Source of the DNA: an uncultured Pseudomonadota bacterium
GTDB taxonomy: Bacteria > Pseudomonadota > Gammaproteobacteria > Natronospirales > REEB76
Assembly: GCA_963817285.1 (NCBI GenBank)
Contig: CAWFOE010000029.1
Coordinates: 6,209-70,208, forward strand
Direction: 5' to 3'
Length of the DNA: 64,000 bases
Shown here in pieces: positions 55,384-56,169 of this stretch. The position numbers and the translations under genes are program-made. Below the pieces are notes generated by a model that did not search any database, had not been told where the DNA came from, and saw only the letters and a list, made by a program, of their open reading frames with translations. Each line of letters opens with the position of its first letter. Position 1 is the first letter of the stretch.

Positions 55384-55595
55384 GCGCTCGTAGCTCAGCT
55401 AGGTGAGCCGGGTTATAAAACCGGTCCGTAGGACCGGTGCCCGGTGAACGCGAGGCAGGGGTTCGGAGCGGTAGCTCCGAACGGGCACCCAGGATGGGTG
55501 CCCTGGACCACAAGCGAAGCAGGATGCGCAGCGCTGTGGCCGAGCTGGTGGGAGCGCCAGGGATGGGGAAGATTGCGACTGTTGAAGTTTTACAC
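55384..55595 (+). repeat. truncated tRNA-Arg 5' copy followed by GC hairpin modules
   Basis: gcgcTcgtagctcagctAgg corresponds to tRNA-Arg nt 1-20. It is followed by gttcggagcggtagctccgaac, gggcacccaggatgggtgccc and a gcgccagggatggggaagatt tail. Confidence 0.7.
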
Positions 55596-55672
55596 GCGCC
55601 CGTAGCTCAGCTGGATAGAGTACCTGGCTACGAACCAGGTGGTCGGGAGTTCGAATCTCTCCGGGCGCGCCA
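55596..55672 (+). tRNA. tRNA-Arg (anticodon ACG)
   Basis: 77 nt. Acceptor gcgcccg/cgggcgc, anticodon loop ctACGaa, T-loop agttcgaatct, encoded CCA. Confidence 0.9.
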
Positions 55673-55676
55673 TATG

Positions 55677-55703
55677 AAAAGCCCACCGAAAGGTGGGCTT
55701 TTT
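55677..55703 (+). terminator. rho-independent terminator after tRNA-Arg
   Basis: aaaagcccacc-gaaa-ggtgggcttttt. Confidence 0.65.
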
Positions 55704-55710
55704 GCTTCAA

Positions 55711-56169
55711 CCGCCCGGAGACATTCGAACTCCCGACGTTGTGATCGGCCGAGTTCGACAAAATCGCTGGGAGCGATTTTGAACAGCGCCGTTTCGGCGC
55801 TGGCCCGAAGGGCGGCGGGCAGGATAGCCCGCCGTAATCCTCCGGGCGCGCCATTAATGAAGGCCCACCGAAACGGCGGGCCTTTTTATTTATTAGCCCG
55901 GTGAGATCCGAACCCTTCGGGTTCGAATCGGTTCTAGGCTCGCCGCATGCTGCGCATCCTGCTCCGCATGCGGTCCAGGGCGTACGTCCTGCACGCCCGC
56001 TCGAAGCATTGCTTCGAGCCCATGCTTCGCCAAGAAGCCCAGGGTTTGCCATCCCTGGCAAACCCGTTCGGCGTATGCGCCGAACCCGGGCGCGCCATAT
56101 AAAGCTAAAGGCCTACCCATCGGGTAGGCCTTTTCATTTCCGCCCGGAGAGGTTCGAACTCTGCCGGCG
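55711..56169. repeat. two further units of inverted T-arm, split tRNA-Arg 3' end with CCA, and terminator, plus a third inverted T-arm
   Basis: Unit 1 is 55711-55887 (gagttcga | 77-bp insert | aatcctccgggcgcgcca + terminator). Unit 2 is 55897-56137 (gggttcgaatc | 156-bp insert | ccgggcgcgcca + terminator). An inverted copy lies at 56140-56169. Confidence 0.7.

Follow-up and report, generated by a model that had tools for sequence, protein, structure and literature searches.

Repeat units flanking a tRNA-Arg gene of an uncultured gammaproteobacterium are probable relatives of the tRNA-linked repeats of Escherichia coli

The DNA analyzed here is a 64-kb stretch (the window, 64,000 nucleotides, nt) of contig CAWFOE010000029.1, from an uncultured gammaproteobacterium. 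It contains an intact tRNA-Arg(ACG) gene with an encoded CCA end (55596-55672, + strand; ARAGORN and the Rfam tRNA model, 65.4 bits), and both flanks of this gene carry partial copies of the tRNA joined to hairpin-forming inserts. These flanks are probably tRNA-linked repeats (TLRs) of the kind described in Escherichia coli. In the interval 55200-56300, a consensus scan returned a single promoter-like site (TTGACC, 17 nt, GATAAT; 55307-55335, +; 10/12 matches), whose sequence suggests a promoter function. The site lies 5' of the upstream unit, which would thus belong to the leader transcript of tRNA-Arg.

Downstream of the gene, a set consisting of the tRNA 3' end, a terminator and an inverted T-arm is present three times. 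Repeat searches place the copies of the 3' end (direct repeat D3) at 55659, 55840 (15/15) and 56084 (13/15), those of the terminator (D1) at 55678, 55860 and 56108, and those of the inverted T-arm (D2) at 55711, 55894 and 56140; the corresponding inverted repeats are I2, a 26-nt arm with 96% complementarity to the T-arm and acceptor of tRNA-Arg, and I4 (21 nt, 95%). In two of the three sets (55711-55887 and 55896-56134), the arm leads into a T-stem/T-loop piece in direct orientation, after which come an insert and a copy of the 3' end including CCA. The first of these units begins 39 nt and the second 224 nt after the CCA of tRNA-Arg, both on the + strand. This arrangement, including the third arm at 56140-56169 and the position of the insert in each unit, agrees with a preliminary description of the locus. 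The same description assigned a terminator to every unit. Read by eye, T1 (aaaagcccacc gaaa ggtgggcttttt; 55677-55704, +; also repeat I10), T2 (aaggcccaccg aaa cggcgggccttttt; 55860-55887, +; also I21) and T3 (aaaggcctaccc atc gggtaggcctttt; 56107-56134, +; also I5) each consist of a GC-rich hairpin followed by 4-5 T, and T3 appears able to act in both directions; a simple terminator scan flagged T3 alone, on the minus strand, and neither T1 nor T2.

Unit 1 opens with arm 1 (55711-55737, +; I2), the reverse complement of the tRNA T-arm and part of the acceptor 3' strand, which is predicted to form a helix, P1, with the 3' fragment of the unit; in the minimum free energy fold, arm 1 pairs with 55842-55850. 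The direct 5' half of the T-stem and T-loop (gagttcga; 55751-55758, +), identified by reading the sequence and by folding, pairs with the distal part of arm 1 as helix P2. Between this piece and (a)atcc (55836-55840) lies a core of four hairpins (55759-55836, +): H1, caaaatcgc-TGGGA-gcgattttg; H2, cagcgccg-ttt-cggcgctg; H3, gccc-gaa-gggc; and H4, ggcgggc-AGGATA-gcccgcc. The H1 loop (UGGGA) and the H4 loop (AGGAUA) thus each present a GGA, giving two sites within reach of a CsrA dimer. The unit closes with a copy of the tRNA 3' end (atcctccgggcgcgcca; 55837-55853, +; D3) running from the start of the T-loop to CCA, in which aatcc-tccgggcgcgcca compares with aatctctccgggcgcgcca in the tRNA and the last 15 nt are identical. 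The predicted fold of unit 1 is markedly more stable than that of shuffled sequences (z = -6.9).

For comparison with other genomes, the 19-mer GTTCGACAAAATCGCYGGG, taken where the insert begins, was scanned against a one-genome-per-species collection, and a covariance model, R1, was built from 26 curated units of nine tRNA isotypes found in this way. The 19-mer occurred in more than 120 stretches among the matches listed. In the stretches read, it belongs to a conserved cassette, CAAAATCGC-CGGGA-GCGATTTTG, a variable hairpin, GCCCGNAGGGC, a hairpin with an AGGAU loop, and a terminal GAGTA, which is located between GTTCGA and ATCC of the T-loop. The cassette takes two forms. In one, the cassette follows a tRNA and its terminator, and the 5' arm of the surrounding frame is complementary to the 3' end copied at the other side; in the other, it sits in the T-loop of a second tRNA copy, complete in all other respects, that directly precedes the intact gene. 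The TLR core common to these units comprises four hairpins in about 75-90 nt, with GGA in the loops of H1 and H4. Unit 1, which was outside the training set of R1, scored 76.8 bits (E = 6e-19) over 55725-55853. The inserts do behave as cassettes placed at a fixed T-loop point (TTCGA^A).

R1 also recognizes known elements of E. coli. RtT units, one of them in the tyrT-tyrV spacer, scored 46-53 bits (E = 1e-10 to 2e-12), the rrnB T1-T2 spacer, which encodes RrB, scored 69.3 bits (E = 6e-19), and the argZ-argQ spacer and the argQ 3' flank scored 24 bits (E = 2e-6) and 15.3 bits (E = 4e-4), respectively. TLRs, which include the "178 bp x 3.14" repeats at E. coli tyrT (RtT RNA), were first described by Egan & Landy in 1978, and Rudd (1999) counted 22 of them at ten loci of E. 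coli K-12; their defining feature is that the last 18-19 bp repeat exactly the 3' end of the preceding tRNA or rRNA (PMC8144298). The resemblance to the window is extensive. E. coli TLRs, including RtT, directly follow a tRNA on the same strand, often in tandem, as do the units of the tRNA-Arg 3' flank. They end with the last 17-19 nt of the tRNA, from the T-loop start to CCA, which pair with a 5' arm of the GGATGAGAA type; the Rfam RtT model (RF00391) likewise pairs the arm with the 3' fragment. The units 3' of E. coli tyrV read arm GGGGAAGGATGAGAAGC, GGTTCGAC, hairpins, GACCCGAAGGGCGAAG, a hairpin and TGAGTA|ATCCTTCCCCCACCACCA, and the motifs GGTTCGA(C), CCCGAAGGGCG and GAGTA|ATCC are shared with the window, the R1 link being in one direction. 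Moreover, the tRNA-Arg(ACG) genes of E. coli itself, argQ and argZ, carry short TLR versions.

The closest correspondence is with RrB. This small RNA and its relatives RrA and RrF are TLRs located between the dual terminators of E. coli rrnB, rrnA and rrnD, and they are produced by terminator read-through (Stenum et al. 2021, PMC8144298). A complete TLR core, corresponding to RrB, occupies positions 305-430 of the rrnB T1-T2 spacer (locus L123) and reads CAAATCCGC-CGGGA-GCGGATTTG, GAACGTTGC-GAAG-CAACG, GCCCGGAGGGT, GGCGGGC-AGGAC-GCCCGCC, nearly the same as the core found here. Like the window units, RrB lies between two terminators, ends in a copied stable-RNA 3' end and carries GGA in two loops. 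RrA, RrB and RrF differ in being linked to 5S rRNA rather than to a tRNA, and CsrA binding is known for E. coli RrB alone. Because the rrnB T1-T2 terminator fragment is common in cloning vectors, many plasmids may carry a CsrA-binding RNA module. The window for its part differs from the E. coli TLRs in having a terminator for each unit, a foreign body in unit 2, units at every tRNA, and an uncultured, non-enteric host.

On this evidence, the flanks of tRNA-Arg are most readily read as TLRs of the same kind as RtT, the argQ/argZ spacers and RrA/RrB/RrF, an assignment that we hold at a probability of roughly 0.8. By its sequence, unit 1 (55711-55853, followed by T2) classifies as a canonical TLR.

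Unit 2 retains the frame and has a different content. Arm 2 (gcccggtgagatccgaaccc; repeats D2 and I22) is followed by the loop ttc and the direct T-stem and T-loop piece gggttcgaatc (55919-55929), the three together spanning 55896-55929 (+). The insert begins after this piece and ends before the copied acceptor 3' strand with CCA (ccgggcgcgcca; 56086-56097, +; D3 and D6), where only the last 12 nt are identical to tRNA-Arg. Its 156-nt body (55930-56085, minus strand) consists of GGA-hairpin modules of the U/M2 type in antisense orientation, reading ggttcggcgcatacgccgaac, gggtttgccAGGGAtggcaaaccc, gggcgtgcAGGACgtacgccc and ggagcAGGATgcgcagc on the minus strand. This body scores 6-9 bits with R1 and so does not share the TLR core. 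Instead, a module nested in the tRNA-Ser unit of the window matches 46 nt of it in the opposite orientation at 95.7% identity, and a block of the element upstream of tRNA-Arg is 80% complementary to it over 59 nt (inverted repeat I1). The predicted fold is again stable (z = -8.4). Unit 2 is thus best described, from its sequence, as a TLR frame in which the body has been swapped for REP-like antisense GGA-hairpin modules. The array ends with arm 3 (56140-56169, +; D2 at 91%, I4 at 95%), an orphan inverted T-arm with neither core nor 3' end after it and hence a truncated TLR frame; beside it, at 56186, lies the stop codon of a TsdA-like gene encoding a TsdA-type cytochrome (56186-57151).

The 5' flank contains a second kind of element. 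A copy of the first 19 or 20 nt of tRNA-Arg, covering the acceptor 5' strand and the D-stem and loop (gcgcTcgtagctcagctAgG; 55384-55403, +; direct repeat D4), is followed by GTGAGC, which re-forms a D-arm-like hairpin. The preliminary description had recognized this copy and given it two mismatches over nt 1-20; the count is three over nt 1-20 and two over nt 1-19. The 192 nt of hairpins that follow, described there as about 190 bp, end as claimed in the tail ccagggatgg (55557-55566), a decamer that also occurs in the tRNA-Ser units at 48409 and 48524. Within the element (55404-55566, +; model R2, alignment A4 and folding), the order is (G)TGAGCC, a hairpin, GGTGAAC, the hairpin GCGAGGC-AGG..GGCCGAGC, CCAGGGATGG, and the tail. 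R2 scores 64.7 bits over 55384-55499, and the RNA fold reaches -106.6 kcal/mol (z = -6.1). Comparison with loci L020 and L101 shows that a 78-nt block of GGA-hairpin modules, including gggcacccAGGATgggtgccc and agcAGGATgcgcagc, is nested in one of the hairpin loops (55460-55537, +), at a position where L020 has a single A.

This arrangement recurs 5' of tRNA-Arg (L020, L084), tRNA-Ser (L101, L017) and tRNA-His (L109). The family, here termed U-type, has the order tRNA nt 1-19, GTGAGC, a variable hairpin, CGAAC, a covarying hairpin with the invariant loop (C)AGGA(N), often ACAGGAUGU, and CACCAGGGAYGG. In the Arg copy of the window, it is the loop of this covarying hairpin that holds the nested 78-nt block. 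The 5' element carries two GGA sites, one in a ACAGGAUGU-type hairpin loop and one in CCAGGGAUGG. The ACAGGAUGU motif is one that we take to match the optimum for CsrA obtained by systematic evolution of ligands by exponential enrichment. A closing acceptor stem was considered as a further general feature and rejected: in the Arg copy, GCGCUC pairs with GAGCGC just before CCAGGGAUGG, and by eye no such pairing is present in L020, L101 or the tRNA-Ser copies of the window. Beyond its training set, R2 retrieved L004 and L053 only, which brings the U-type to seven other loci in this survey; we therefore make no claim that it is widespread, and it appears lineage-restricted on present evidence. 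Judged on its sequence, the 5' pseudo-copy with its hairpins constitutes a second, 5'-linked family. U/M2-type modules of the same sort (CCGAAC, gggcaggcAGGATAgcctgccc, gcggagcAGGACgcgaagc) were also seen in ordinary intergenic DNA at 23126-23240 and 59566-59720, both on the minus strand, and are therefore not strictly bound to tRNAs.

The other two tRNAs of the window, for glutamine and serine, are flanked by the same two-sided layout. The tRNA-Gln locus (10188-10592, +) comprises a U-type unit (10188-10275; R2 55.1 bits), the tRNA (10340-10413), a terminator and a TLR unit (10458-10592) that was a training member of R1 (104.2 bits). The tRNA-Ser(GCT) locus (48347-48895, +), directly after csrA (PF02599, 88 bits), comprises two U-type units (48347-48420 and 48453-48535; R2 60.3 and 74.1 bits), the tRNA (48568-48661), a terminator and a TLR unit (48714-48895) with modules nested inside the H1 loop. 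Since its core is interrupted by these modules, the last unit scores just 13.2 bits with R1 (E = 0.11). The sequence TTCGACAAAATCGC occurs exactly three times in the 64 kb, each time just 3' of a tRNA (expected 0.35; none of 100 shuffles reached three). Strong GGA hairpins are similarly concentrated, with 10 of 34 falling in the 2.9% of the window that flanks tRNAs (p = 3e-8).

Structural constraint on the core is evident from an alignment of the units, A2, whose consensus has six helices: P1 (arm with 3' fragment), P2 (GAAC with GUUC) and H1-H4. P1, H2 and H4 covary. Paired cells make up 94.1% of the total as against 32-47% when the partners are slid along one another, and double-change cells number 88 as against 17-24; none of 500 shuffles reached the observed value in either case. 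Hairpins with GGA in the loop average 2.08 per unit, compared with 0.65 in dinucleotide shuffles, and 118 of 143 units have at least two. The arm favors its own tRNA type, being complementary to the 12-nt copied 3' strand at a mean of 8.2 positions for its own tRNA type and 7.2 for other types (p = 1.6e-10). An arm that is an exact inverted tRNA 3' strand over the full 12 nt was rejected, as the mean is 8.2/12 and the 6-8 bp proximal to the T-stem are retained. Many arms, those of E. coli included, have GGATGAGAAC in place of the exact complement GGATTCGAAC, which leaves a tandem G-A opposite the insert base.

The family extends well beyond the enterobacteria. Among the loci obtained from the listed 19-mer matches and the E. 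coli loci, on which all distribution counts rest, R1 gave 159 matches in gammaproteobacterial sequences. Positive loci came from Steroidobacteraceae, Rhodanobacteraceae, Lysobacterales, Rheinheimera, Alteromonas, Aestuariibacter, Klebsiella and Serratia, from metagenome-assembled genomes of Chromatiales, Methylococcales and Thiotrichales type, and from a Solemya symbiont. Rheinheimera, Alteromonas flava, Klebsiella sp. WOUb02 and Serratia sp. AKBS12 are cultured carriers of CAAAATCGC-type TLRs. No match was obtained in records labelled non-gammaproteobacterial (Dinoroseobacter, Asaia, Ignavibacteriales, Thermodesulfobacteriota and others) or in L007, L046 and L056, whose 19-mer matches are thus attributable to chance. 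Of the units within 400 nt of a tRNA, 122 of 126 (97%) are co-oriented with it, 92 downstream and 30 upstream. At least 11 isotypes are involved, with Ser, Gln, Arg and Pro dominant, and the T-loop breakpoint is the same in 11.

Several variants were observed. Full-length copies of tRNA-Ser, -Arg, -Gln or -Pro with a core in the T-loop (GGTTCGA|core|ATCC) are found in L022, L042, L015, L031, L055, L070, L085, L109 and L112, where they sit 110-230 nt upstream of an intact tRNA of the same type. In L011 (1400-1720, minus strand), tRNA-Ser(UGA) is preceded by two 160-bp units in tandem, and L030 has the same kind; here tRNA nt 1-36 are followed by the core, placed in the anticodon loop after CTTGA, and then by AAACCGG, which shows that the core is not confined to the T-loop. 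In Rheinheimera (L023 3-122, L026 7648-7767 and L110 3584-3703, all on the minus strand), the core lacks tRNA-like arms, lies on the strand opposite to a tRNA-Arg array and is followed by a shared bidirectional terminator, so that it has the appearance of a free-standing small-RNA gene with two GGA loops. L101, the closest relative among the matches listed (79% nucleotide identity over alaS-lysC-csrA), carries its tRNA-Ser cassette of U-type unit, tRNA, terminator and TLR (2830-3420) inverted relative to csrA. The content of the flanks differs strongly between the window and L101, and also between the window and L020.

What is new in these observations is modest: the breadth of the family beyond Enterobacterales, the tRNA-scaffold variants, the 5'-linked companion family and the nested REP-like modules. 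RrA, RrB and RrF had been reported as conserved within Enterobacteriales only (PMC8144298), and the present survey places the TLR family in many gammaproteobacterial lineages and at 11 or more isotypes, with a structurally constrained core, two conserved GGA loops, tRNA-like frames and 5'-linked counterparts. TLRs have been scarcely studied since 1978. An earlier functional claim for RtT was retracted, and the family is otherwise without known function, the sole lead being in vitro binding in E. coli: RrB binds Hfq and CsrA with a dissociation constant of ~100 nM, and changing GGA to UUU abolishes CsrA binding (PMC8144298).

This lead raises the possibility of a mechanism. The 5' arm and the copied 12-19 nt of the tRNA 3' end would form a helix resembling the acceptor and T-stem, from which the four-hairpin core would emerge at the T-loop position TTCGA^A. 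By homology with RrA, RrB and RrF, the 3' units would be transcribed by read-through of the preceding terminator, and enzymes that process tRNA and rRNA ends might excise them by recognizing the copied 3' end. The 5' unit, lying in the tRNA leader, would be freed by RNase P cleavage. The two GGA loops could then bind CsrA, and possibly Hfq, yielding a CsrA-binding RNA in proportion to stable-RNA transcription. The arrays themselves would expand and shrink by duplication or by unequal recombination, for which the repeated 3' ends, terminators and arms would provide the sites; near-identical tandem copies in L003, L019, L025 and L057, together with the repeated frames at tRNA-Arg, suggest growth of this kind.

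More broadly, and as a tentative proposal that is more likely to need revision than to stand, the TLR cores and U-type units might represent widespread gammaproteobacterial CsrA-binding modules that have colonized the loops of tRNA copies (T-loop TTCGA^A, anticodon loop CTTGA^A, D-arm GG^A) and 5S copies, the frames serving as natural tRNA scaffolds for end processing and stability, such that bursts of stable-RNA synthesis would release CsrA-titrating RNA from both leader and trailer. Engineered tRNA scaffolds for recombinant RNA and the tRNA-like processing signals of eukaryotes and viruses (mascRNA, MHV68 tRNA-miRNA) similarly hold a passenger RNA in a tRNA-like frame with ends set by tRNA-processing enzymes. 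Cores in the T-loop or anticodon loop of a tRNA copy would parallel these by analogy of principle, with processing here a prediction; a literature search on tRNA scaffolds found nothing relevant.

A further comparison is with the sponge RNAs of the Csr/Rsm systems (CsrB/CsrC, RsmX/Y/Z, RsmW and RsmU). These also present A(N)GGA in hairpin loops, and the two sites per module found here have a spacing that would suit the CsrA dimer. In contrast to the units, the sponges have 5-20 sites rather than about two, they are free-standing GacA-driven genes rather than parts of tRNA operons or frames, and they show no sequence homology to the units, the best sub-threshold Rfam scores being 16-19 bits for RsmW and 15 bits for rsmX. 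Xanthomonas RsmU was rejected as a relative, since it derives from the comEA 3' untranslated region (UTR). To our knowledge, classical CsrB/RsmZ-type sponges are poorly defined in Lysobacterales and Steroidobacterales. Were the proposal correct, TLRs would supply CsrA sponges in these orders and would tie the control of growth rate directly to the Csr/Rsm network. The breadth of the family, its constrained core with two GGA loops, its tRNA-like frames and its 5'-linked counterparts provide a testable handle on the purpose of TLRs, namely CsrA titration tied to stable-RNA synthesis.

A number of observations weigh against the assignment or the proposed function. The RtT model of Rfam (RF00391) scores only 17.0 bits at 55722-55844, against a gathering threshold of 45; the model is specific to enterobacterial units with tRNA-Tyr ends and an H1 lacking GGA, and the E. 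coli units score 134-137 bits, with none of 12 related loci reaching the gathering score. At gathering thresholds, Rfam recovered only tRNAs and 6S RNA in the window and these 12 loci. The RtT core of E. coli has itself lost the GGA of its H1 loop. The lack of variation of H1 in A2 is due in part to ascertainment by the search pattern; in units found by R1 without the pattern, the H1 stem varies (CAAATTTGT../..ACAAATTTG, GCCATTTGC../..GCAAATGGC) and the loop keeps NGGA. Stem covariation cannot separate hairpins of RNA from those of single-stranded DNA. A strong terminator for each unit means that read-through may be low. The modules of unit 2 are antisense and would read UCC, not GGA, in the loops of a + strand transcript, which is more easily accounted for by selfish hairpin DNA than by selection for an RNA; the U/M2 modules at 23126-23240 and 59566-59720 lie away from tRNAs altogether. 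Finally, deletion or overexpression of RrA, RrB and RrF had modest effects on CsrA-regulated phenotypes in E. coli (PMC8144298).

Selfish DNA is the alternative that best survives, although we consider it fairly unlikely. The cores and U/M2 modules would then be non-autonomous elements, similar to REP elements or miniature inverted-repeat transposable elements, moved as single-stranded DNA by a Y1 transposase (RAYT, IS200/IS605) encoded elsewhere and inserting at hairpin-loop motifs, with any RNA incidental; the preliminary description had likewise raised transposases of this type. The fixed, short insertion points would be explained in this way: GA^A for cores in the T-loop (TTCGA^A), the anticodon loop (CTTGA^A; L011, L030) and the 5S copy (GGGA^A), and GG^A for U-type modules in the D-loop, the H1 loop (L053 and the tRNA-Ser unit of the window) and the U-hairpin loop. 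So would the head-to-tail arrays of cores without intervening tRNA pieces (L002, L044, L060), the near-identical 46-nt module in opposite orientations at the Ser and Arg loci, the modules away from tRNAs, the hairpins that bound the core on either side in the manner of IS200/IS605 ends, and the fast turnover of flank content relative to L101 or L020. The nested U/M2 modules in particular resemble REP, BIME and REPIN sequences and IS200/IS605-derived elements in being short, GC-rich, intergenic palindromes in both orientations, near-identical between loci. They differ from them in clustering in tRNA flanks and in conserving GGA loops; no GTAG-type 5' tetranucleotide was noticed in them by reading, no formal test having been made. 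No Y1/HUH transposase (RAYT or TnpA) was found among the 22 open reading frames (ORFs) scanned in the window. Evidence that tells against selfish elements comes from the cores: their sequence is conserved across orders of Gammaproteobacteria with the loop GGA kept while the stems covary, no copies were found at protein-coding or random intergenic TTCGA sites, and the homologue in E. coli is expressed as an RNA that binds CsrA (PMC8144298). The 97% co-orientation with tRNAs, despite TTCGAA being palindromic, points the same way, although strand-specific insertion into the lagging-strand template could also produce such a bias. A selfish origin and a domesticated RNA function can coexist.

Serial integration, to which the preliminary description pointed, would require that integrases acted repeatedly on the 3' half of tRNA-Arg; later deletion of the elements would then have left 80-160 bp between attachment (att) copies. 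Displaced 3' ends are indeed present, and as direct repeats downstream of an intact gene they look like attL and attR sites of integrative elements or genomic islands. The integration itself is highly improbable and largely refuted. The same layout recurs at all three tRNAs of the window and at 159 sites in the gammaproteobacterial loci searched, and its core shows covariation of the RNA type. An integrated element would need more than the 80-160 bp of hairpin DNA, as that description had remarked, and all of this DNA is TLR core or hairpin module, conserved and structured, with homologues of unit 1 in E. coli and about 100 other genomes. An inverted arm, a terminator in each unit and a 5' unit are not features of att scars, nor is a T-loop breakpoint that is identical in 11 isotypes, and the GC content of the locus is host-like. 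No integrase or transposase appeared in a Pfam search of the 10 flanking ORFs, which returned DUF481, an S41 peptidase, Sel1/TPR, a transcriptional regulator, cytochromes c, a solute-binding protein, DsrE and DJ-1; among the ORFs scanned, there is no integrase within ~5 kb on either side, and no cargo lies in the locus. Duplicates of tRNA 3' ends beside tRNA genes should accordingly not be annotated automatically as integration scars.

An observation more favorable to integration concerns tRNA-Gln. Directly after its TLR lies a low-GC islet of ~3 kb (10600-13500; 42-52% against ~63%) with TonB_C-like and Rap1a (type VI secretion immunity) ORFs, none of its ORFs being an integrase, and a degenerate TLR with a tRNA-Gln-like 3' end is situated inside it (12141-12260; R1 23 bits, E = 2e-4). 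The islet is the only part of the window in which foreign DNA may have arrived between repeats of a tRNA 3' end, and it indicates that tRNA flanks in this genome can hold such DNA.

Mis-joining or duplication of repeats by the assembler, conceivable given the metagenome-type source and the error-prone assembly of short repeats, can be dismissed, since 55758-58344, which takes in the larger part of unit 1 as well as the whole of unit 2 and arm 3, matches an independent Logan contig (L001) at 100% identity, the units differ in sequence and content, and isolate genomes including E. coli K-12 have the same architecture.

Three further features of the window lie apart from these repeats. An ordinary 6S RNA gene, ssrS, is encoded at 25614-25799 on the minus strand (Rfam 95.9 bits). 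At 11270-11510 (+), an intergenic stretch of ~240 nt, without an Rfam match at E <= 1, contains at least nine GGA motifs, many of them in predicted hairpins (e.g. cgcctacaTGGAtgtaggcg), and by appearance resembles a multi-site CsrA sponge of the CsrB/RsmZ type. Lastly, the interval between a terminator and the start of rpiA (23960-24100, minus strand) is a GGA-rich leader (cgcctgcaTGGAtgcaggcg, gcaggagcgg, cgaggatgcc) that may constitute a CsrA-regulated 5' UTR.

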